From the sequence record NC_041937.1: a DNA stretch of 64,000 bases, one strand, 5' to 3'. Below the pieces are notes generated by a model. It did no database searches and was not told the origin of the DNA. It saw only the letters and a program-made list of their open reading frames with translations. Of the stretch, positions 14,496-59,383 are shown in pieces. Made by a program: the position numbers and the translations under genes. Origin of the DNA: Escherichia phage V18. Every line of letters starts with the position of its first letter. The first letter of the stretch is position 1.

Positions 14496-15175
14496 CTTAC
14501 CAACAGAAGGGTTGGAGACTGTTCAGTGATCAGGGCAGAGTATGCCAGAGTGCCTAACTGCATGGTCTGGCTTGCTGTCCTCACTACCTTAGAATCAACA
14601 TCTGTGAAGTTGTTGATGATTTGGAATGTACCATAAGTGTTTTTACAGGTAATTCTGGCGTTCAGTGTGTCAATCTTCCTCACATCTGCCATAGCAGTGT
14701 TAGACACAGAGAAGTCAGAAGCTCTAGCCGAGTTTGCTGCAACAGCTGGATCAACGTTGAGAGTTGCGTTGAACTGGCAGGCAGGAGTAACCAGTAGCTT
14801 GTTATCACCTATTTGCTTCCATGAAACACTTTGAACAGGGAGATTCCATTTAATACCTGAGAAAACTTTAGCAACCCTTGGTCCCAGAGCTCCAGTCCTG
14901 TTGTCTTTACAGCTCATGGACATGGTGATCGTTGACGGAGTGGCCTGACCAAACAATTGCTGTGCTTTTGCAGAGGACATGGTGTAGAAATTGTCCTTAA
15001 CAAACTCATCAGCCGCTAACGATCCGTCAGATCTCCACCATTGCACCTGGTAGCCTGTCTTATCCCAGCCACCAACCTGCTTCAAGTCCTCCCAAGAGAT
15101 TTCCAGATCCCCAGTGGTAGGTTGATTGCCGCAGTTCCCGGTGTTCCAGATGACCATATTGGGATATCGAACCAC
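14492..15175 (-). CDS. hypothetical tail-associated protein (start uncertain; 94-nt overlap with upstream ORF)
   Basis: 227-aa ORF from track. Confidence 0.4.
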   Translation of the reverse strand: MVRYPNMVIWNTGNCGNQPTTGDLEISWEDLKQVGGWDKTGYQVQWWRSDGSLAADEFVKDNFYTMSSAKAQQLFGQATPSTITMSMSCKDNRTGALGPRVAKVFSGIKWNLPVQSVSWKQIGDNKLLVTPACQFNATLNVDPAVAANSARASDFSVSNTAMADVRKIDTLNARITCKNTYGTFQIINNFTDVDSKVVRTASQTMQLGTLAYSALITEQSPTLLLVS

Positions 15176-16047
15176 GCTGGTTTAACAGACTGCACTGCGT
15201 TAGGTCCTATTGCAGCAGCAAGTTGTTGACCCATCAATACGCGAGTATCTTTCACATAACCCCACTCGATCATAGACCCAGAGTAACCCTCTTTCTTATA
15301 CGCGGATGACCCATTCAAGTGAATAAGTCTACTTGTGCCGAAGTTATACGCCCCACCACCATTATCATCTGCAAAATTGTATATGATTCTATCCCTAATA
15401 TCTTTCCATGCCCTACCGCCAATCTCGTAGTCATGGTCATAGCATCTTTGCAGCGTTGTCCAGCAGATGATTGCCATCCTTCTACCGTTACTGAAGCCGA
15501 AAGCCTGATCGTTAAGCTCTCTCCACAAGTAGCAGTTGGTGGTCCACATGGCTCTGTGAATGTTGTACCAGTTTATAGATTTGGCAGAGTTGTTCCACTG
15601 AGTTCCGGGTAATTCAGGCCATACTGCATTAACCAGCATGTCCTCTGTCCCTGCATCTATCAAGAAGCCTCTCACCTTCTTACCCATACCTACTCTGTCT
15701 TTGGCAATCCATGCGCCAAACAATCTCAGTTTTGGACCGTAAACATCCTCTTCGCGATGCTCAAGAGAAACATACTTTAGATATACCGTAGGGTCACCGT
15801 AGGTGTCGGATATTCTTTTATCCCCTGCATATGGTGAGTCTGCAAACTGGTAGTGCAGAGCAACTTCAAAAGGATGTGTGGATGTTCCGTTTTCTGCAAG
15901 AACTTGCTTCCCGATCAGATCGCATTTAATAATCATCACGACACGTTTGTACCCCCAGGTTAACGGAACAACAAACGGAATCAGGCAGTTCACCAGGTCC
16001 CCAGAATATTGCTCCGGAACAGTTGTAGAACCACTTGTTAGGATCAT
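15082..16047 (-). CDS. hypothetical tail-associated protein
   Basis: 321-aa ORF, ATGA overlap with upstream gene. Confidence 0.45.
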   Translation of the reverse strand: MILTSGSTTVPEQYSGDLVNCLIPFVVPLTWGYKRVVMIIKCDLIGKQVLAENGTSTHPFEVALHYQFADSPYAGDKRISDTYGDPTVYLKYVSLEHREEDVYGPKLRLFGAWIAKDRVGMGKKVRGFLIDAGTEDMLVNAVWPELPGTQWNNSAKSINWYNIHRAMWTTNCYLWRELNDQAFGFSNGRRMAIICWTTLQRCYDHDYEIGGRAWKDIRDRIIYNFADDNGGGAYNFGTSRLIHLNGSSAYKKEGYSGSMIEWGYVKDTRVLMGQQLAAAIGPNAVQSVKPAWFDIPIWSSGTPGTAAINLPLGIWKSLGRT

Positions 16048-18065
16048 AGTTGTTCTTGAAGGTCTGAACCTCGTTTGCCTGTTTCAACAAGAAAACATGC
16101 CTGTCGATCAGCATATCCAGGTTGGTTAAACCACTGATTGCAAGAATAGTCCCGCATATAGTCATAATCAGAGTATTTGTTGTTTGCATCCTCGTTCCAA
16201 CACAAGTTCAGGTTGGTGCCGCCCATGCACACAATATATTCTTCAACGTATTTATCACTTCGGGTGGGAATACCTATGAACCATCTGTTAACAGGTTCGT
16301 CCCAAGCTGTGCGCTCATCTTTAACGCAGATAGCAATCCAGTCATGTGTTCCTGTTTTCTTGCACACATCGCGCTTCATACCGTAGTAGAACTCTTTAGT
16401 ATTTGGCTCAGGTGCGCTTATCAGGTAGCTCCACGCCTGGTCTGCATAGGTTCCGTTGGTGCGAGGGTCATGATCAAAGGCATACATGAGGATCCTTTCC
16501 CCACCAAGATGTTCGCCAAGAGTAACTTTGACATTCACATCGCCGTAACCGTTGCGAACAACATCCATATTGTCAATAGAGATGCCTCTAGGGGTGTAGG
16601 CAATTTTCAGTGAGTTATCCTCACTAGTGCCACCAAGGGTGATCCCTATGTTATTTGTTGTCCCGTCGGCATATCTTACTGTAGCTTCCCAGCGTATTCC
16701 GAAATATCCTGCATCATGGCTAACAATTTTCAGTGTACGAGCACCAGAGTTAGGTTTTCCAGGATCAGGCCAAGGGTTTGGGTGTTCGTGAACAGTCAAC
16801 GATGTCCCGTTTTGTTCATTGACCTGCAACATTTTACCACCTCTGCCGTTTGGGTTGAACTCCCATAAGGCCTGTGTCTGCACCAAGTTATCATAGGTAT
16901 TTCGTCGCTGATTATAAATCTCTTGGGTAACATCATAAGTTACTGATCCAGCATCCATTCTGTGGAGTCTGACCATATACGATGTATCCCCTTCTACTGC
17001 AGGCTGAGCCGCATTCAGCCCAAAGTATACAGTATCATTAACATGGAACTGTTTGTTTCTACCGGCAGTATGCCATTTACCATCAGACGGGTACGCTGGG
17101 ACGATAGTGTTCCAGTTCAAAGTCCTTGTTGTGTGGGTTCTGCCTGTGCCATGTTTGTCATGATAGGTTCTGTTAACATTTCTGTTATATTGGGTAACAA
17201 CAACTTCGTTGGCCCCGCCGTGGTTCCAGTTGGTGGAGAATTGGTAATTTGCATCTGTAACAACCGTGCCTGCAGCATTTACCAGCTCAATCTTGTCAAT
17301 AATGAACGTAGCCCCTTCTGGCTGAGGCTTCAATTTCATCTTGACCGTGTCACCAATGTAAATATTGCTAACGCTGCTAACACCGTTAACGTCGAAAATA
17401 TCATCAACACCCCAACTATCTACCGGGACATTTTTATACCAATTCTCCGGAATCTCTGTGAACCCTTGGCTGTTAAGTCTGCCGCCAAAGAGGTTATTAG
17501 ATCCTGAAAAACTACCACGTGGTATTCCTGACCACCAAAGCTTTCCATTTACCACACAGAATGTGCCTAAGAAACCTTCCCTGTGGATCCCTTGAAAATA
17601 AACGCTTTCTGTCCAACTTACTGGCTCTGTCTGTTCAACAAACTTAGCTGTTGCCAGCGCTCTGTAATGAATAAAATTGGCCCTAGGGTTGTTGTTTGCA
17701 GATTGAGCACCAATATCATTACACAAGTTGCGAGAGAATCCACGATACTGCTTAGTGCCATTGTTGAAGAAAATGCCACTTGTGCCGTACCCACGAGCCA
17801 TTATTACCTCATGAACATTCCAGGCTGTTTCGCTCGGATAGTTTATAGGGCTACGATCCCCAGTGCGGCACTCTCCGAACTTGTTATAGCCAGTAATATT
17901 AAGCTGACCATCATCAAAAAGTATAGCTAAGCTATTTACATAGGATACTGTGTTGCTTGTACCATCACTGTTGTCTATTGGGTATGACAGAACAGCAAGT
18001 TCCTTAATTCCACCCCTCTTATCGAGGAAATGACGACCAAGTTTTAGCAAAGGGATTGGAAGCAT
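16044..18065 (-). CDS. large tail fibre/tailspike-like protein
   Basis: 673-aa ORF rich in G/N/T/S/Y; position in fibre cluster. Confidence 0.5.
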   Translation of the reverse strand: MLPIPLLKLGRHFLDKRGGIKELAVLSYPIDNSDGTSNTVSYVNSLAILFDDGQLNITGYNKFGECRTGDRSPINYPSETAWNVHEVIMARGYGTSGIFFNNGTKQYRGFSRNLCNDIGAQSANNNPRANFIHYRALATAKFVEQTEPVSWTESVYFQGIHREGFLGTFCVVNGKLWWSGIPRGSFSGSNNLFGGRLNSQGFTEIPENWYKNVPVDSWGVDDIFDVNGVSSVSNIYIGDTVKMKLKPQPEGATFIIDKIELVNAAGTVVTDANYQFSTNWNHGGANEVVVTQYNRNVNRTYHDKHGTGRTHTTRTLNWNTIVPAYPSDGKWHTAGRNKQFHVNDTVYFGLNAAQPAVEGDTSYMVRLHRMDAGSVTYDVTQEIYNQRRNTYDNLVQTQALWEFNPNGRGGKMLQVNEQNGTSLTVHEHPNPWPDPGKPNSGARTLKIVSHDAGYFGIRWEATVRYADGTTNNIGITLGGTSEDNSLKIAYTPRGISIDNMDVVRNGYGDVNVKVTLGEHLGGERILMYAFDHDPRTNGTYADQAWSYLISAPEPNTKEFYYGMKRDVCKKTGTHDWIAICVKDERTAWDEPVNRWFIGIPTRSDKYVEEYIVCMGGTNLNLCWNEDANNKYSDYDYMRDYSCNQWFNQPGYADRQACFLVETGKRGSDLQEQL

Positions 18066-27621: not shown

Positions 27622-30365
27622 TTAGTCGTGAGACTCGTTCCAAGGTCCCTGGAAGCTAGAGTTTGAACGACTTACTATCACAGTAGGACAGGATATTGTA
27701 ACACCTGTTACAGCTGAGGTGGACCAGCGTGTGTAAATTTCAACAATAATGTCTATGGTTTGTTCACCCAGCCCTGTTATCCCGACTGCACACATACCAT
27801 CGTTATCGTTACCATACTTCTTGCCGTTAAGCTTAAAGAAGAATGTTACGTTCTTGCCTTGGCCTTGAACGTTATCCACGTATCTCCATCTCCAACGGCA
27901 AACCTGCTGCCGAGAGTTGTATACTGGAGGACAGTCACCGTAGGTCTTGTGTGCAACTATTGCACCTTCGAACTGGTTAGCACGGATAACGGAAGCTTCT
28001 ACACGTCCACGGAATGTACCTCCTGTTGCATCTATGGTTCCTCTAAAGCTACCATTGTTGGCATAAACATCTCCACGGAAGGTACCACTGGTGGCGTTAA
28101 CTGCCCCTGTGAAGTTACCTGCACTAGCGTTGATGTTACCTTTCACCCACACATCCATAAACTGGGCGTGCCCGTTCTTGTTAATATACCAACCGTATTT
28201 ATGGTACCCGTTGCCATCGTAGTTGTTTGACGAAATCTCTTGTGCGATCTTGGCAGAGGAGATCGTGCCATTCTCTATAAAAGCGTCTTTCAAGAACGCT
28301 TGGTTGTTCTTGATTGCGAAAGCAAGGGTTGCTGTTCCATTGCCGGGGTTGTATACCGCAAAATTGTTTGCACTAACCATGAAGTAGGATTGAACTTGGC
28401 CCCCAGACCCTTCCATCCCCAACTGGATACCTGCAACATATTTAAGCAGCGTGCAGCGCATTCTACAAACTGAGAACTACCAAAAGCGTTTGTGGTTCGA
28501 ATATACCAATAATAAACCTTATCGTTCTGCAGACCTTCAGATGTCCAAGTTGAACCAACACCCATACGGGTGGCGTTTGAAGTAACGGTTGCATCGCTGG
28601 TGTCGGGCAACCTTGTCATACCAGATGTCCAAAAGTCATACTGGGTGCTTACACTTGCTAAATCCCTGCTGTGTGGAATCAAGGTGATAGCAAAGTATCC
28701 CTGCTTAACCTCTACAGAAACAGGAGCTTCAGGTGCCTGAATGTTAAACTCGCAGTACGCTTCTGGAGATACACCACCTTTATAAGATGTTGCAACCACG
28801 GTTGCTGTGTATGATCCTTTGGTCAAGCCTTCTACTCGGACAAACTGCTCAACTGTCTGTGCTGTCCAAACAATCTCTCCGTTCTTTCTTACCTGCACAA
28901 TATTTTGAGCGTAAGTTCCAACGTTGTCCCAAGCCAAAACACCGTGAGTTACTTCCCCGGCTTGGAGAACGGAATATCTGAAGTTTTGCGGTTGAGCTAC
29001 ACCAGATGGAGATATCGGAATATCTACATTGCCAGAATCCGGAAGTTGCCCTGTGGCATCATTCCACTCTTTAGCATCTTGACGAAGTTTTACCTTGACA
29101 CCACCCTTTTTGGTAAACTCCCATTCAAGAACCCTCATTTCTTGGCCCACTATACCAATACTTGGAAGGTTCATTGTAACGTAACGACCAGGTTTAAATT
29201 TAAAACCCCGCATATTGCAGGTGACTTCAATAATCCTGCCAGCTCTAGCGCGTCTTAAGAAGATTGCAGAAACACGCTGAGCTTGATAAGGGCTGGTAAC
29301 AAAGCGATAGTCTATATCGATTATCTTTCTTTCTCCATCCTTCTCTATCCACTCTGGGACAAACACTGATGGAAAATCTGTTTCAGAATACCCTTTAGTC
29401 GGACTGGTGAATCTGCCAGTTATTGTGTTGGATCTTTTGTCAAACGAGGCTTCCGGATAGATCTTGACCTCACCACAGACACAGTCCTCACTCAGTGTCA
29501 TTGTTGCTGGACCATAATATGCACCTACCAGCAGTCCATACTTACCAGCTACATAACTGAGATCTGCACCACAAGCTTTCAGCATTTCTGCCATAATACT
29601 TGCTGGAGCCTCATCCATGTCGAACTCACCATTGATGGTGTAACGGCGCTCACTAGTTCCGTCCGCGTTTCTTACCGCCTCATCGCATATGTTGGCAGCC
29701 TCCTTGAAGGACTCCCAGTTGATGGTTTCGTCAGGACATTTAAGGTACGTTCTTAAATAATCTAGAATCACCAAGGCCGCGTTATTGGTATACACCTCTT
29801 TACTGATACGAGGATCATAGCATTTTTTACCAACCTTGACGAGTGTAACGTTTGGCAACCCAAAAGGGAACTTGTTAGGGTCAAACCTGAAGCTGGCACG
29901 TAGCCAACTGATCCCTCTACCTATCATGTCTGGTGACCACGATGGGCAGTGTGTACCCATGAAAGGATCAGATGTTTTTCTGTCGTTATGTAGCTCCCAC
30001 GATACCAAATCTCCATACGAGGAAATAGGATTACCGTCGATAAGTATGTCCTCTATACCTTCCAGAGGGTGATTGGCAAGAACAATAGCACAATGGAGGG
30101 TTCTGTCGCTATCCTGCTCCAAAAACGCAAGCAATCCAGATGTGCGTGTCTTTCCATACACTACAGAGCAAGGTGCAGCAGAAGATCTGAGAAGCTTTTG
30201 TCTATCTTGCTGACTTCTGTAAGATTTGTTGCCCTCAAAAATCTTATCCAAAGTTCTGGTGGTCACAGTGTTCAGGCTGTCAGCCAGAGCTGCCTTGGAT
30301 GCGTTCCAGTCATAACTTGAAGATCTTGCAGAAGCAACGATGTTATCAATCATTGCAATTGGCAT
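27622..30365 (-). CDS. lambda J-like tail tip/host specificity protein, interrupted by a frameshift near 28440..28465
   Basis: 28290..30365 carries APEAPVSVEVKQGYFAITLIPH and YYWYIRTTNAFGSSQFVE, closely matching my recollection of lambda J; 27622..28461 in another frame continues with KYVAGIQLGME... and fibre repeats. Confidence 0.6.
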
Positions 30366-32024: not shown

Positions 32025-32031
32025 AAAACAG

Positions 32032-33064
32032 TTACTTCAGTTTCTCTTGCAACCCAGTAACAACCTCTGTCAATTTTTTAACCTGCTCCTCAAGGGCGGT
32101 TATTTTATCATCCTGCTCCCTGCAAACCTGGACAAGCAAGCCTGTTACAGCTGCGTAATCCACGCTGTAGAATCTTTCCTCTGTTATCAAAGGAGTTCCA
32201 TCTTGATCAGGGTTTGGGATTTCCTTTCTTTGCACGAAAGAGCTAACTGCTTCCGGCAGCGCTTCAAGCACCTCTTGTGCTATAACACCTGCATAAGGCA
32301 TACCATTCTCTTTCAAGGTGTAGGTATAACCCTTCATCTTACGGATAGCTTCTAACGCATCAGGAATAACAACTATGTTATCTTTCAGGTCTCTGTCAGA
32401 ACTCTGATTGACAGATGTGCAATTCACAGCACCGTTTACAGAAAGATATCTTGATTTATCCGGCAAGGTACCGCAATGCCATACATAAGCTGATTGAGAC
32501 TCGTCAAGAACCTTAAACTCTAGCACGTTTGGACGAGTCCCTGCACTGCCGTTGCCCCAATAATGCTGCCATCTGGAAAGCGTAGTTTCCAGAAAATGCC
32601 ACAGACAACCCGCCAACAACCATTGAACCTTCAGGTCCGTTGACGTTGCCAGCCAGTATTTTGGATGGGTTGTTAGGCCCAAACTGGTTGTTCCAGTCTG
32701 CACCAGTATGACATACAAAACCACCCGGTGCTGAGAAAGTGCCATCTTTGTTGAAGTTGTAGAATCTATGAGCTGTGCCTACAACATCGCGAACGATAAC
32801 TTGACCAGCTTCCGGAGTAGATCTGAACTCTGCCTGGCCTTGCAGTCTTGCACCATTACCACATTTAGAGGTAAAGGTGTTGTTGATCAGATCCTCTGTT
32901 CCTTCTGATGCAGCTTGGAACCCTGCGTTAGAGAACAGTGCTTTTCTAGTGGTCTGACTACCAGGACAAATGTAGTCAATACCGTCTGCCCAAAGCTCGA
33001 CTTTAGGCATGTTCATTTTGCTCATCACTGCATAGCGTTCAGGAGTCCCCAGGTAGTGCCACAT
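32032..33064 (-). CDS. tail fibre distal segment with C-terminal intramolecular chaperone (peptidase S74-like) domain; internal frameshift
   Basis: ORF 32513..33064 and ORF 32032..32745 overlap in different frames; C-terminal SSDRDLKDNIVVIPDALEAIRKMKGY...VIAQEV matches the S74 autoproteolytic chaperone signature. Confidence 0.5.
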
Positions 33065-33163
33065 AGTTCCACCACCAGTGTAGAAACCTGATGTTCCTTT
33101 GAACTCAACCAGAGGTCTGGTGTTTGTTACATCATCACCTTTGATTGCAAGACTTGGAAAGAA

Positions 33164-34963
33164 TCACCTCTGTCTGTCCAGCCACCAGTTCTGTAGTGAC
33201 ACTGTAGTGTAGCACAGTTCATTGGGTCCCCCTACAGTCCTGGCACTGGTACCACCACAAGCTATCGGTAGTGGTTCCCATTTGGCTTTCCGGTTGTTAT
33301 AAACACCCCATTCCAAACTGCCGTTACCGGATTCGTCCATCCCGCCATCCCAGATGACCATCTTGGCGGCTTTCTTAGATCCCCAGAAACCTCTTTCTGC
33401 TCCTGAACTGCGGATCCATTCTCCAAGTCCCCAGTTTGCCAGCTGACCGTTCAGATCACCAACCTGCATATATTTAGGACAATCTAAGACCCCATCCTCA
33501 CGGAAGCCTAAATATCTATGAGTTTCAGATCCTTTTGCGCCTTTGTGCAGGTGGATTGTCAACCAAGCCTTATTGTCGTTTCTTACCTCAGAGTAGATCC
33601 TATACCCATGCTCAAGGACACCGTCAGCGCTGTATTTGTCCCCGTTAACAATACCTGATGCTGACTTAACATCAGCAGAACTTTGAGACAGGTAAAGGTG
33701 CCCAAAGGTAGGGGAGTTTCTAGACCCGAGACCGATGTGTGCTCTAAAGGTATCATCGTTACGAGGTCTGACCATCGGCTGCCATGCAGTCCACTGATTT
33801 GTGTTGGCCTGGTAGGTTCTCAAATACCAAACATCTACGTTAGAGAATGGATAGTATTCCTGACGACAACCTGTACCGCCGTTAGCATTGTTCTGCCAAA
33901 CAATCAAGTGACCAGCACCAGAACCTGCAGGGTAACCATTTGCCTCAGTTGCATAGGCAGTCATCGGCTGGTAGTACACACCATCCTGATTACCAGTTAA
34001 GTTATTGATATTGAAATTTGGCTCAAGGGCTGCACGTTGCTTATAGAAAGCCCCCAAGTTAATGCGTGAACCTGCGGCATCCCTGGCACCTGTGCCGCCT
34101 TGCTCTATAGCAAGAGGTTGCCACGAAGCTGTTTGTTGGTTCCACATACCCCAACGGCCTGTTGCATCAAGCTGCAAGTACCCTGCTGTGTTTAAATCAT
34201 CTCCAGCACGGATAACTGTTCTTGTTGGGTTGTTTGCCTCTAGGCGTTTAAATTCATCACGAAGTGCTATTCTTTTTGTTGTTGCTACACCGTTGGTTAC
34301 TGCAATGGTATACATGGCTCCGGTGGTAGCGCCACGGAAAATACCATCAACAGTTGTAGTATCACGACGAGATACCACACCATTCAGAAATTTTTCACCA
34401 GCTGCTACAGAAGGGTAGTTGGTAGTTCTTCCCTCTTCAATAACTGCAGGGCCAACAAAGTTATCAAGGTGAATAACATCGCCTACAGTGTGCACTGTAC
34501 CAAAATCTACACGCTGTGCAAGGGCTTTAGCATCGTTAGCTGTCTGAACAGTAACATCCATTACATCCTGGACAGACTGCCCTTCGGCTGTCATAATCAT
34601 AGATGCGCCAATGGTAGATTCCAGCTCCTCCCTTAAGGACGGATCTGTATATACCATCCATGCAGCGTCAGTAATCCCACCATCGGAGTACGGTGAAGAT
34701 AGTGCAGGGACAGTGTGTGGAAATTCGCCTTTCCAACGCAGGTAGAGGTCTTCCTCTTCGAAGTAGGCAAAATCCATTGGGCCGTTTAACTTACCACCTT
34801 CCTTAAAGGAGATTACATGAGAAACAGTCCCATCCACATGGACAACATCGCCAATTTTTACACGACGAGTCAGGTCTGGTTGTTGAACAACCAGGTAATC
34901 ATCCTCTGTCACTGCGGTAGTGGCAGGAAGAGATTCAATTCTGACAACTTTAATATCAGCCAT
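33164..34963 (-). CDS. tail fibre protein (N-terminal anchor plus shaft)
   Basis: 599-aa ORF; N-terminal DDYLVVQQPDLTRRVKIGDVV shared with 37598..38266; ends at a TGA that is in frame with the downstream fibre segment. Confidence 0.55.
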   Translation of the reverse strand: MADIKVVRIESLPATTAVTEDDYLVVQQPDLTRRVKIGDVVHVDGTVSHVISFKEGGKLNGPMDFAYFEEEDLYLRWKGEFPHTVPALSSPYSDGGITDAAWMVYTDPSLREELESTIGASMIMTAEGQSVQDVMDVTVQTANDAKALAQRVDFGTVHTVGDVIHLDNFVGPAVIEEGRTTNYPSVAAGEKFLNGVVSRRDTTTVDGIFRGATTGAMYTIAVTNGVATTKRIALRDEFKRLEANNPTRTVIRAGDDLNTAGYLQLDATGRWGMWNQQTASWQPLAIEQGGTGARDAAGSRINLGAFYKQRAALEPNFNINNLTGNQDGVYYQPMTAYATEANGYPAGSGAGHLIVWQNNANGGTGCRQEYYPFSNVDVWYLRTYQANTNQWTAWQPMVRPRNDDTFRAHIGLGSRNSPTFGHLYLSQSSADVKSASGIVNGDKYSADGVLEHGYRIYSEVRNDNKAWLTIHLHKGAKGSETHRYLGFREDGVLDCPKYMQVGDLNGQLANWGLGEWIRSSGAERGFWGSKKAAKMVIWDGGMDESGNGSLEWGVYNNRKAKWEPLPIACGGTSARTVGGPNELCYTTVSLQNWWLDRQR

Positions 34964-50387: not shown

Positions 50388-51212
50388 TTATTCACCACCT
50401 TTCAGAGTTGCTTTAACAACCAGCTCTGGACGGGTGTTAACTGCCAGCATGGAAGTTTCAGATTCAATCTTCTCTTCACGCAGGTATGCAGAGTGTTTAT
50501 ACCACATGTACAGTTCCTGTGCTGGAGTGTTTGCTTCGTTAACATCGTCTGCCGGAGCAAAGTGCAGCTGGAACATCTGATCAATACCCATCGGCAGAAT
50601 GCGAGCTTCTTTCTTAGGAATATTGCCAGAGATATCTTCGATAAAGGTGATACCTTTATGCTCAAACACACGGTATACGCTGTCTTGACCGCCAGCACCC
50701 AGACGGCGACGCAGAGGTTCCTGAGCAGAGCCGTAATAGGTGTATGCCAGTTCTACCAGAGGGTCATACTGACAGGTTGTGTCACCAGGTGCATAGGATT
50801 TACCCAGAATAGCCTGGAACAGCGCTTTCTCACGCAGTGCTTCATGAGAAACACGGATACGGCGAACAACGCGGGTTACTACGTCCTGAACAGTTTTCGG
50901 AGCATCAGGTGTGAAGTAACGACGGAAGTTCTGAACATCTGCTGCGGTGATGCCTTTGTCCAGAGGGAAGAACGGGATGTTCAGGTTTTTAACCTGAGCA
51001 CGTTCACTACCAACGTAGTTACGCTCACCACCACGACGGCGTGCCGGAATGTCGGTTACAACTTCATCAACACGCTCAATCTGAGCAATTGTTGAGGTGC
51101 CGAGACGGGTTTCGAACAGATCCATACCAGTAATCAGGCGGAATTGACGCGGAACAAGGTCCAGAGTAGCACCTAAATCAACAATGCCAAATTCATCTTT
51201 ACGAGTAATCAT
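50388..51212 (-). CDS. putative major capsid protein
   Basis: 274-aa ORF, codon usage of a highly expressed gene, strong terminator downstream, position after portal/scaffold; short for an HK97-fold capsid protein. Confidence 0.45.
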   Translation of the reverse strand: MITRKDEFGIVDLGATLDLVPRQFRLITGMDLFETRLGTSTIAQIERVDEVVTDIPARRRGGERNYVGSERAQVKNLNIPFFPLDKGITAADVQNFRRYFTPDAPKTVQDVVTRVVRRIRVSHEALREKALFQAILGKSYAPGDTTCQYDPLVELAYTYYGSAQEPLRRRLGAGGQDSVYRVFEHKGITFIEDISGNIPKKEARILPMGIDQMFQLHFAPADDVNEANTPAQELYMWYKHSAYLREEKIESETSMLAVNTRPELVVKATLKGGE

Positions 51213-51296: not shown

Positions 51297-51380
51297 TTAT
51301 TTCCCCCGTTAAACTCTTATGCTTCAGCAGATCCAGATACTCTTTAGTTTTGGTTGCGTCCCTTGATCAGGTTCCCTTCT

Positions 51381-51728
51381 TTATCGAAGAGATCCCAGCC
51401 TACCAATACAAGACTCTGCGTCAGCTTGCGCCCATTCCCAATCAGGATGCTCTTTAGCCCAAGCCTCCTCTTCAATCTCAAAACCAAGCATGTGTGCAAG
51501 TGCTTTAGCATCATCATACCACATATCGAAGAAACGACGCAAGTATTCTTCAAAACTAAGCTCCACAGTAACTTGGCGAAGTGCCTTAACAATATCGTCT
51601 GTTAACTGCTCAGGCTTAAGATCACTCTTCATCAAAAGAGATACAGGTCTGTTGTTAGCGCTATAGCCTTGCGCCTTATGGCACAGGGCAATCCCCTTCT
51701 CTTTAATAGTAATCGTTTTTTCAGACAT
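51381..51728 (-). CDS. head protein (decoration or scaffold-associated)
   Basis: 115-aa ORF between scaffold/protease-like and capsid genes. Confidence 0.4.
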   Translation of the reverse strand: MSEKTITIKEKGIALCHKAQGYSANNRPVSLLMKSDLKPEQLTDDIVKALRQVTVELSFEEYLRRFFDMWYDDAKALAHMLGFEIEEEAWAKEHPDWEWAQADAESCIGRLGSLR

Positions 51729-52214: not shown

Positions 52215-53771
52215 TTAATTTTCCATGTTGGATATGGAATTATCTCTGGTTGATGACATCTTAGAAGTGCCGTTGCCAGTGGATCCTGCAGCCATTCCAT
52301 CACCAGCCCTACTAATGTCCTGGCCCAAGAGCTTCATCAGCTCTTCCTGATCCATGTCCTCGTCAAATCTTTCATCAAACCCGCCTACTTCAAGAATCTT
52401 ATTAATTACTGCAGGAGTTTTTGGCAAGTAACCTACAGCACCGATCCTCTGGACAAACTTGGAGAAGCTCTCCATATCCACTTCTTCAATCAGACCAGGT
52501 TTCAGTTTAGGCATATCATCATCTTCAAGGATGATACCATTCAATGCCAGAAGCTGTGGAATAAGATCTTTATTGAAGGCCTCAGTGATAATATCTATAT
52601 CACGCTGAACAAAATGACCATGGATAGACTGTTTTGACTCAGACAGAGAGAAGGATCCAACGTTATCGTTACCGAGGTTAATAAAGCCAGCACCGAAACG
52701 GTCAAGGATCGCCTTCTTACGGGCATCAATCAAATCTTTAGTGGAATACTGCTTACCCATACCGTCAACCCCCTTCAGGGTCATGGAGTAAAGCTCTTTA
52801 CCAGACTTATCTCTATCAGACGGAAGTATAAAGAAACTTTGCTCACCACTATGGGCGTTTGCTGCGTCAAGCATAAGGTCTGCAACCATTCTCCCTTCCA
52901 TTGAATTCGGGTCAATGCTGGCCTTGTTCAAAATATTGGAAGGAATTTTCAGCTCAAGCACACCACCAAGGTCTTTAGAACAGCCAACAACCTCAAGGTT
53001 TTCAATCAGAACTTTCTCACGGAAAGATCTGTAGCAACCTATCATCGGTGACACACCTGCAGGGTTAGATTCTGTTCCTGACAGGGTCATGAGCATAAGC
53101 TTTTTAGCAGGGATGAAAATTTCAGGCTCATTAAAGCCTTTTGAAGGCATTGCAGCAAGAGGTCCAGCCCAGCGTGCATTTTGAGTGTTTAGAAATGCAT
53201 TAGGTGATTGATAAATACCTGTCAGTGTTCTGCTATTCTTGTCAAAGACAAACGGCTCTGATCTGGACAAACTGGCCTGAGGTCGGAATGCAATTTTATC
53301 AATAAGAAGCATCCCGGCATATTTACCTTCTTTCTCTCTGCGGTATACTTTCTCAAACAGTGAAAAACCATACTCGTTAAAGGTAGCTGCGCTTCTTGCA
53401 ATATCTCGAAGAGTTTGTTGGTTTGCCAAATTACGCAAAGAATACTCTATAAGCTCGGCAGCTTTCTTAGAGTCTTCACTTTTAACATTATAAAGGATCT
53501 TAAAATCATTGAATGCTTTCGTGATGAAAACATATTTTGTATCTAAGGCAGTAGCAACTGTGGAATCACATTTCATAGTCTCCACTGTAGCAATCAGCTG
53601 AGGCCAACGCAATTCCTCAACCATCATAGATTGCGATTCTGCCATAATTTGGGAAAGTGCGCCAGAACCGATCTCACTCATACGAACATTATGAGTTGGT
53701 GCGCCTGCGTTCCCAGATTTATTCACAGTTTTGGCTGTGGCGTTGTGTTTCCTGCGGTTCTTTTTGGACAC
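52215..53771 (-). CDS. portal protein
   Basis: 518-aa ORF directly downstream of terminase large subunit. Confidence 0.6.
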   Translation of the reverse strand: MSKKNRRKHNATAKTVNKSGNAGAPTHNVRMSEIGSGALSQIMAESQSMMVEELRWPQLIATVETMKCDSTVATALDTKYVFITKAFNDFKILYNVKSEDSKKAAELIEYSLRNLANQQTLRDIARSAATFNEYGFSLFEKVYRREKEGKYAGMLLIDKIAFRPQASLSRSEPFVFDKNSRTLTGIYQSPNAFLNTQNARWAGPLAAMPSKGFNEPEIFIPAKKLMLMTLSGTESNPAGVSPMIGCYRSFREKVLIENLEVVGCSKDLGGVLELKIPSNILNKASIDPNSMEGRMVADLMLDAANAHSGEQSFFILPSDRDKSGKELYSMTLKGVDGMGKQYSTKDLIDARKKAILDRFGAGFINLGNDNVGSFSLSESKQSIHGHFVQRDIDIITEAFNKDLIPQLLALNGIILEDDDMPKLKPGLIEEVDMESFSKFVQRIGAVGYLPKTPAVINKILEVGGFDERFDEDMDQEELMKLLGQDISRAGDGMAAGSTGNGTSKMSSTRDNSISNMEN

Positions 53772-53873
53772 AAGCTTTACCCCTCAAAACAGTATAACAA
53801 AATAGCCCTCATGTTAGAGGGCTAGTATCTCCGATTACTCTATTCTACCACATCTAATTAAGATTGGCAACAC

Positions 53874-55429
53874 TTAGATAAAACGCTTGAACATAGAAGG
53901 TGATGAGATTGATGGAATCACACAAGGAAGTGCTACCTCCTCTTTCTCCAGGAAATTAATCGCAGAAGCTACACAGTCGGCCCAGTCGTCTTTTCTGTTA
54001 AATGTTGATCTTTCCCCGTTGAATTTTTCAAGTTCAGTCAGAAATGCTTCCAGAGTATCAGGATGGAAACTGGATTTTACAATCCTCACCATTCCTTGTT
54101 GGGCAAGATTGGCAAAAGGTGAGAACCTTGTCAGTTTAGATTTGTTGGAAGGCATTGGGTCTTCTTCAACCCTAAACCCTTCGGCAAGCAAGGATCTGGA
54201 GGAGGTTAAGAACTCACTCTTACCTGCCTGACCGGGGTCCACAGAGAATACGATTATACAATCATCACCATCAAACTGCGCCTGTTTCCTGATGATCACA
54301 TCTCGTTCACCAGCCTTTTTACAGAACTTGCCTTCCAGACCTGTGGAATACCTCCCGTCATCCACGTTCTCAGGACAATAATCCCCGGACAGGTAATAAA
54401 AGCCGTCGCTATCTTTACTTACCTTGACACTGGCGGTAAAGTCAGGAAATTTATTACCGGAAGTTCTCTCGGTTCCTGCTTTATCCCATGCCCTGCAAGA
54501 CACTGATCCAAGGGGTACTCTATCGGCATCACGAAGGAAAGATCTTTGAAAATAGTTTGCACCCTCAGGCTTTGCAAACCAGTTACCATGGAGAAGCTGA
54601 GCTTTTTCAAGCTCGGGCAGACCTTCAAGGAAAGCAAGGTATTCTGGGTTGTCTCTTAAGCAGACAGGATTATCGAAGATTGTTGCGCCTATAAACGAGA
54701 ATGACAACGGTCTCGGCTTGATCTCTACACCCAGTCCGTTAACCGTGGTGTATTTCTCTATCAACTCTTCTTTAGAGTCTCCCCAGATAAATTCACCGTC
54801 GCGTCGGATAAAATATCTTTTCTTACCGCATTTCTCCGGATCTGGATACCCTTCATCGTCCAACCACCACCTAACCAGTTTGGCAAGCATGTGTTCTGAA
54901 TCGGGGTTACAGCTGATAACCATTCTTGATGGATACTTTGACTGAGATCTCAGACGAGACATCAGATAGTCTATCTGCTCCCATTCGAACTGCGTGCCTC
55001 ATCGAAGCAAACCAAGCAAACCATGGTATACTCAAGCCCTTGATGGTTAAGCTTATCTTGTACATACTCCATGTGGCAGTATTTTACAACAGCTCCCTTT
55101 TTGCTTCTATCCCACTTGCCAGTGTTCGGATCAAACCGTGGAAAAATGAACTTATGATCCTTCTCTCTGAACTTTGGCTTAATGTTTTCAGGCAGATCAC
55201 TATAAATAGCTACTGCTTTAGGCCATAGTCCACCCTCACCTTCCAACTGTGGGGTTGTTCTTCGGAACATAACCACAGAGCTGTGGGGGTCATCAATAAT
55301 TTTAAGTGGCATCAATTGCAAGAGGAACGACTTGCCAGACCCTGCGGCACCGCCGATTACCAAAATATCTGCATCGTTTTCGAGGATCATCTTCTGCTTT
55401 TCAGAACACGGTCCGTAAATCTTAGACAT
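53874..55429 (-). CDS. terL: terminase large subunit, split by apparent frameshift at about 54975..54998
   Basis: N-terminal ORF 54971..55429 has Walker A GGAAGSGKS and Walker B LVCFDEA; C-terminal frame is open from 54998 (QFEWEQIDYLMSRL...) and continues in ORF 53874..54962. Confidence 0.7.
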
Positions 55430-55716
55430 TAACCTCTCTCCTTTGGAAACAGTGTTCTAATATAGTCTTGCAAAATGATCAATTTAGCTCTATCATTGCT
55501 ACAAGACAGATTATTATCCCTCATAATGCCAGAATTCACTGCATCTGGCGCACCTTTCTTCAAAGGCATAGCTTTAGCAGGTGGTTTCATGGCACCTTCC
55601 GGGGGTTTAACAATCAACCTTCCTACATCAGGAGGGTCAATCTTGTATTCTCTCTCAACGCTGGTTGCACACCCACATAATAACAAGCAAACAATAAACA
55701 GTGTAGCAACTCTCAT
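55429..55716 (-). CDS. o-spanin (Rz1-like outer-membrane lipoprotein)
   Basis: 95-aa ORF; signal sequence with lipobox-like LLLCGCA; Pro-rich mature region. Confidence 0.5.
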   Translation of the reverse strand: MRVATLFIVCLLLCGCATSVEREYKIDPPDVGRLIVKPPEGAMKPPAKAMPLKKGAPDAVNSGIMRDNNLSCSNDRAKLIILQDYIRTLFPKERG

Positions 55717-59320: not shown

Positions 59321-59383
59321 TGTGTCCGTATCACGGACAGTTAGTGTCCGTATGACGGACAGTAGTGTCCGTATCACGGACAG
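59321..59383. repeat. three tandem 21-bp repeats, each containing the palindrome GTCCGT-ATC/ATG-ACGGAC (iteron/operator array)
   Basis: Units at about 59323, 59344 and 59365, read directly from sequence; AT-rich region with inverted repeats GATCTAGTA/TACTAGATC (59222..59279) lies just upstream. Confidence 0.6.

Follow-up and report, generated by a model that had tools for sequence, protein, structure and literature searches.

The apparently split large terminase gene of a predicted Vequintavirus genome is probably an ordinary intronless gene carrying a sequence-quality artefact

The large terminase subunit (TerL) gene of phage rV5 is divided into three segments, with one intron carrying a homing endonuclease (Kropinski et al., 2013; PMC3606486), and the introns that we found at two TerL sites in rV5-like relatives agree with this description. 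At site 1, a group I intron (Rfam RF00028; 84 bits in slur12 and 44 bits in Gotham) separates ORFs of 142 aa and 362 aa, which are annotated as two ORFs at the same point in slur12, slur16, JohannBauhin, naswa, Gotham and many metagenomic and Logan contigs; carriers of the intron include slur12, Gotham and L009-L018. It is inserted at GGT/ACA (slash, insertion point), after the exon U expected for P1, ends in G, and is 319-320 nt long, or ∼883 nt where it holds an Endonuclease_7 (PF02945) ORF of 189-196 aa, such as the 196-aa ORF at 2303-2893 of L009. Its in silico removal yields a 515-aa protein identical to the TerL of FV3. The second site, further downstream, holds an HNH_3 ORF. The intron content of TerL is polymorphic among Vequintaviruses (L003, 1098-1416; L005, 1098-1979; L009, 2085-2967; L004, about 1412-2394; also L021 and L024): site 1, located after Walker B, occurs with or without the Endonuclease_7 ORF, site 2 has an HNH_3 plus HTH ORF, and the exons have been entered as separate "terminase" or hypothetical genes by gene callers and in several GenBank records. 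Intronless alleles are also on record. FV3 and EmilHeitz, in which the gene order is i-spanin, o-spanin, TerL and portal, annotate one 1548-nt, 515-aa TerL, and a single 515-aa ORF with GATGAGGGCACG is present in both phages and in intronless metagenomic contigs.

The 64,000-nt stretch of DNA analysed here (the window) is, judged by its sequence, the genome of a Vequintavirus (rV5-like) phage of E. coli. Its TerL region is 97-99% identical to more than 100 Vequintavirus phage records, with FV3 as the best match at 99.1%, and it resembles the FV3 (YP_007006235.1) and EmilHeitz (QXV77905.1) genes both in DNA sequence (99% identity) and in neighbours, with the spanins upstream and the portal gene downstream. 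The original prediction described this TerL as split into an ATPase ORF and a nuclease ORF. Both ORFs are present as given (54971..55429, 152 aa, and 53874..54962, 362 aa, both on the minus strand), but the division of labour between them is different, in that the break falls inside the ATPase domain, just after Walker B, and not between the ATPase and the nuclease (Table 1). Pfam matched Terminase_6N positions 2-105 in the 152-aa ORF (E = 3.7e-4), and Terminase_6N positions 117-211 (E = 1.9e-6) together with Terminase_6C (E = 1.1e-6) in the 362-aa ORF, while the intact FV3 TerL matched Terminase_6N with an E value of 6e-20. Both profiles of a T4-type TerL are therefore matched significantly in the window, and the 152-aa ORF has a Walker A (GxxxxGK[ST]) and a Walker B (hhhhDE) motif in GAAGSGKS and LVCFDE, respectively, in agreement with the original prediction, which had placed GGAAGSGKS and a Walker B motif in this ORF. 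Given that a phmmer comparison of FV3 TerL with PDB sequences returned no match, the motif assignment rests on Pfam and direct reading.

Table 1. Features of the terminase locus, and sites of single-base deletion across the window.
Feature	Position	Strand	Details and basis
Whole TerL gene, intronless allele	53874..55429	-	1556 nt vs 1548 nt in FV3; 99% identity to FV3 and EmilHeitz TerL
5' ORF, 152 aa: N-terminal half of the ATPase domain, Walker A and Walker B, 8 out-of-frame codons, TAG	54971..55429	-	
True TerL continuation, -1 frame: remaining ATPase domain and RNaseH-like nuclease	53874..54998	-	tblastn, Pfam
Walker A, GGAAGSGKS, residues 26-34 of the 152-aa ORF	55328..55354	-	Translation
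Walker B strand, LVCFDE (relatives: MVCFDE), residues 139-144 of the 152-aa ORF	54998..55015	-	Translation, alignment
Frameshifting 1-nt deletion, G-run GGG to GG, directly after the Walker B Asp-Glu	54997..54998	-	Alignment to FV3 and EmilHeitz
9-bp in-frame tandem duplication, two copies of GGTTTGCTT; TMVCFDE to TMVCLVCFDE; private to the window	55005..55022	-	Alignment
Equivalent of the group I intron insertion site (GGY/ACR in relatives)	54995..54996	-	No intron in the window
Equivalent of the second TerL intron site (intron with HNH_3 ORF in relatives)	54677..54682	-	Intact, empty in the window
1-bp deletion sites	6800, 6917, 11689, 15120, 23168, 25997, 31440, 39971, 43560, 47502, 49907, 54997, 56224, 56693, 59158, 61598		

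The reading frame does not run continuously through the ATPase and nuclease domains. When FV3 TerL was searched against the window with tblastn, residues 1-142 aligned in frame -1 and residues 142-515 in frame -3, the latter with 100% identity, and the switch at 54997-54998 is mended by one added G. A single-base indel somewhere between about 54975 and 54998, to be placed by comparison with TerL homologues, had been proposed as the simplest explanation; the alignment to FV3 and EmilHeitz located it precisely, in a G3 run contracted by 1 nt, so that GAGGGCACG of the relatives reads GAGGCACG in the window. The downstream frame is open from 54998, as had been stated, immediately past a TGA at 54999..55001. 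The 152-aa ORF was said to stop 13 codons after Walker B; it in fact ends 8 codons past the Walker B Glu (ARSSNGSR, then the stop). While the loss of one base explains the frameshift, the account of a single indel missed an adjacent 9-bp tandem duplication, which inserts three private residues ahead of the Walker B strand in the 152-aa ORF. In codons, the relatives read ACC ATG GTT TGC TTC GAT GAG GGC ACG CAG TTC, and the window reads ACC ATG GTT TGC TTG GTT TGC TTC GAT GAG G-C ACG CAG TTC. The duplication sits 7 nt upstream of the lost G, both lesions lie within 20 nt, and the net change is +8 nt (+9 nt and -1 nt), which, unlike in FV3 and EmilHeitz, leaves the ORF broken after Walker B.

Adding one G alone gave an open TerL frame of 518 aa, and adding the G while dropping one copy of the repeat gave 515 aa with 100% identity to FV3 TerL, as also to the EmilHeitz protein. 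Apart from the two lesions, the gene differs from FV3 TerL at five DNA positions, all of them synonymous. Neither the duplication nor the contracted G-run had a match in 50,697 phage records, E. coli complete genomes, IMG/VR, GTDB genomes or JGI metagenomes, and a 121-nt query spanning the lesion site matched 92 phage records, none of them with the sequence of the window.

The intron-interrupted TerL of the rV5 type resembles the window in that the apparent break lies at the same codon boundary (Gly/Thr, after the Walker B Asp-Glu) and the same 362-aa downstream ORF is called; the 362-aa product of these relatives is identical to that of the window and appears in 381 blocks of the indexed gene collection. 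In those phages, however, the intervening sequence is a self-splicing group I intron and the gene is restored by RNA splicing, whereas the window has no intervening sequence: RF00028 had no match in 53700..55600 even at E ≤ 1, and the TerL of the window exceeds the intronless gene of FV3 by just 8 nt. Homologues with a natural two-gene layout here had been named in the original prediction as grounds for abandoning the single-base explanation. Such homologues seem to exist, but removal of a group I intron of 319-883 nt restores 515 aa in them. Given that their TerL mRNA is spliced and the window has no intron, homologues that appear to be split here too give no support for a natural split. Loss of an intron by imprecise deletion was considered as well and rejected, with the exon flanks of the window, GG(G)C ACG CAG, being those of the intronless allele (GGC ACG CAG) and not of the intron-bearing one (GGT/ACA CAA).

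We then placed the lost G in the context of the whole window, which was compared with FV3 and EmilHeitz, keeping only indels seen against both. Among the clean isolated 1-bp indels, 16 were deletions and none was an insertion. In 15 of these deletions, the base lost was a G or C within a run of 2-4 (P about 2e-5, G/C runs being 42% of all runs), and the same holds for 14 of the 15 deletions outside TerL; inspection by eye of the sequence around the 16 deletions, for instance for a methylation site, revealed no motif beyond the G/C runs. One deletion (56693) lies at a tRNA 5' end and removes the spacer or first base between tRNA-Thr and tRNA-Met. With FV3 proteins as tblastn queries, frame switches were seen in roughly a dozen or more genes, with several essential ones among them, including those for the tape measure, baseplate hub, distal tail protein, short tail fibre, tail terminator/baseplate protein, RNA ligase, the anti-sigma/HNH gene (twice), the giant Ig-like fibre, hyp20 and several hypothetical proteins. 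rIIA and the fucosyltransferase gene also switch frame, with indels established in the comparison with FV3 only. Given the rate across the window, TerL would be expected to hold 0.4 events, so that one event there is unremarkable.

In 11 shifted genes, the ratio of synonymous to non-synonymous differences from FV3 was 281:47 downstream of the shift and 147:23 upstream. Given this unchanged ratio, the old frames have been under selection for essentially all of the divergence, and given that the downstream frames were translated throughout it, the shifts are either technical or extremely recent. A plaque-forming phage could not carry all of these frame-breaking deletions.

The head module of the window is damaged in another manner. 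Five private deletions, with junctions at 50764, 51231 and 51320-51395 and 0-4 nt of microhomology, set the window against all relatives examined: the major capsid gene has lost 186 bp in frame, leaving a 274-aa ORF, the decoration gene has lost 354 bp, which is most of the gene, and the scaffold gene has lost 366, 82 and 116 bp, with islands of 94, 42 and 34 bp remaining. Additionally, the FN3 tail-fibre gene has a private loss of 1039 bp at 28444. An exact-protein look-up of the 152-aa TerL ORF, the 274-aa truncated capsid ORF, a 148-aa variable ORF and an 865-aa tail protein found no records. The sequence as given cannot encode a viable phage, and it is either a poor consensus or assembly or a defective genome.

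We therefore consider it probable that the TerL frameshift is a sequence-quality artefact, a homopolymer under-call, in an ordinary intronless Vequintavirus TerL. On this account, a single-gene rV5-like TerL would be interrupted by one G missing from the GGG located 3' of the Walker B Asp-Glu, as one instance of window-wide single-base contractions in short G/C runs, a pattern that has the look of under-calls in base calling or consensus building. Under-call errors in consensus sequences are likewise deletion-only, restricted to short runs, strongly G/C-biased, spaced every few kb, and break conserved genes while the downstream codons stay constrained, and the window has such recurrent, deletion-only, run-restricted indels in otherwise conserved genes. 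The actual phage would then most likely make a normal 515-aa TerL, or, should the duplication be real, one of 518 aa; the ORFs would not be separate subunits, and recoding would not be involved. We infer that the cause is technical and not very recent mutation. The 9-bp tandem duplication counts against an explanation by error alone, as it is not a typical base-calling error, and under-calls by themselves explain neither it nor the larger clean deletions. Given the duplication and the clean private deletions of 10 bp to 1 kb, a second process also shaped this sequence, be it misassembly, amplification chimeras or real rearrangements in a defective genome.

Real and very recent lesions would be expected if the window represented a defective, non-viable or trans-complemented genome, for example a variant from a metagenome or mixed population, with TerL and many further genes only just inactivated. 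The private deletions (186 bp in the capsid gene, 354 bp in the decoration gene, three in the scaffold gene, 1039 bp in the tail-fibre gene and 10 bp at 14506) are hard to blame on base calling, and the lesion-specific ORFs are nowhere on record, both of which are consistent with this scenario. We nevertheless regard it as unlikely. The strict contraction bias in G/C homopolymers, with 16 deletions and no insertions, is a technical signature, and to our knowledge corresponds to no mutational spectrum of phage replication; codon constraint is unrelaxed downstream of the shifts, and the genome is otherwise 91-99% identical to lytic isolates, so that its ∼20 simultaneous knock-outs would all have to be extremely recent. 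What under-calling leaves unexplained is the location of the lost G, 1-3 nt from the point at which the relatives carry their intron, where just one of the 141 G/C runs of TerL is located; this is a coincidence observed post hoc. It could be read as the scar of an attack by a homing endonuclease, in which an intron-encoded, Endonuclease VII-type enzyme of a co-infecting relative cut the intronless target near GGC/ACG and faulty repair of the break produced both the duplication and the 1-nt loss. The long form of the intron does have an ORF for such an enzyme (PF02945), the duplication lies 11-19 nt upstream of the GGT/ACA site used in slur12, Gotham and L009-L018, and, synonymous substitutions aside, TerL has no window-specific changes other than the two lesions. 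However, the genome-wide pattern fully covers the 1-nt loss, the cleavage position is supposed, and a frameshifted TerL would be lethal, so that such a scar could not spread. Classical end joining is absent from E. coli, and the normal route of repair for breaks in phage DNA is recombination. A homing scar, or the milder version in which the in-frame duplication is an allele selected for resistance to cleavage, is thus conceivable but very improbable in our judgement. Slightly less improbable, though still unlikely, is that the 1-nt loss is an error and the duplication is real, giving a 518-aa TerL (TMVC-LVC-FDE) that keeps its LVCFDE strand intact as a target-site variant escaping homing, or endonuclease cleavage, by the intron of competing Vequintaviruses. 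The duplication was also considered as the footprint of an excised insertion sequence with a 9-bp target duplication, a reading dropped for want of support: no trace of an element is present, and bacterial elements of this kind do not leave clean footprints on excision.

Explanations in which both ORFs are used as they stand fare considerably worse. Programmed -1 frameshifts in phage genes, such as those of the G/GT type in tail assembly chaperones, likewise involve two overlapping ORFs in the 0 and -1 frames, and the geometry in TerL would permit one, in that the protein would be restored by a -1 shift at any point in 54971..54998. Unlike the G/GT type, the window has no slippery X XXY YYZ heptamer in the 27-nt overlap GGCACGCAGUUCGAAUGGGAGCAGAUAG (direct reading, GAUGAGGCACGCAGUUCGAAUGGGAGCAGAUAG), the arrangement is not conserved in relatives, all of which have one ORF or an intron, and an essential catalytic domain would be bisected. 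Transcriptional slippage fares no better, with no long A/T run or homopolymer tract in the overlap, and we give almost no credence to a fusion of the two ORFs into one TerL by either route. The same negligible weight goes to a natural two-polypeptide terminase, in which the Walker A/B half and the remainder would be made separately and then assemble. Although gene callers give ORFs of 142 aa and 362 aa here in hundreds of assemblies, a group I intron (RF00028, 84 bits) lies between the ORFs in all of those cases, which yield 515 aa when spliced in silico, and the window has none; moreover, the cut would divide the ATPase fold, parting Walker B from what follows it in the domain. Given that the ATG at 54962 has no Shine-Dalgarno sequence at a usable distance, independent translation of the 362-aa ORF is unlikely.

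A split TerL is therefore most likely not a real biological feature of this phage, and would otherwise be a very recent lesion in a defective genome. For annotators, the result is a caution that no split or two-subunit terminase, pseudogenised TerL or recoding site should be reported here, and that roughly twenty genes of the window, including TerL, need correction at the level of reads before biological claims are made. There is a trap in comparison with relatives, as many rV5-like phages show an apparent two-ORF terminase divided at this very codon, but host a group I intron and splice the mRNA. If the 9-bp duplication proves real, it would offer a small, testable case of variation of a homing site inside an essential ATPase motif.

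Other differences were noted elsewhere in the window. The giant Ig-like fibre gene has a private 10-bp deletion at 14506 (CCTCCACCCT) and, at 16177, a private tandem duplication of 3 bp (TTG); no small tandem duplications other than this one and that of TerL were seen. Large gaps or replacements relative to FV3 and EmilHeitz occur in the Ig-like and tail-fibre genes at 15805-16098, 17811 (where 696 bp are missing), 27824, 28444, 32026-32566 and 33124-33267; some of these may be natural fibre mosaicism, and others may result from the same process as in the head module. Between 56500 and 56950, three tRNAs (Met, Thr and Arg) were detected, vs six ARAGORN calls in the equivalent stretch of FV3; the Pro tRNA region is altered, and about 370 bp with Tyr and Ser are absent. 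Finally, an intergenic 21-bp deletion relative to both references at 59353 removed the inner GC-rich hairpin (CGGGCAGATGTGCCCG) of a larger palindrome, and is possibly a terminator variant.
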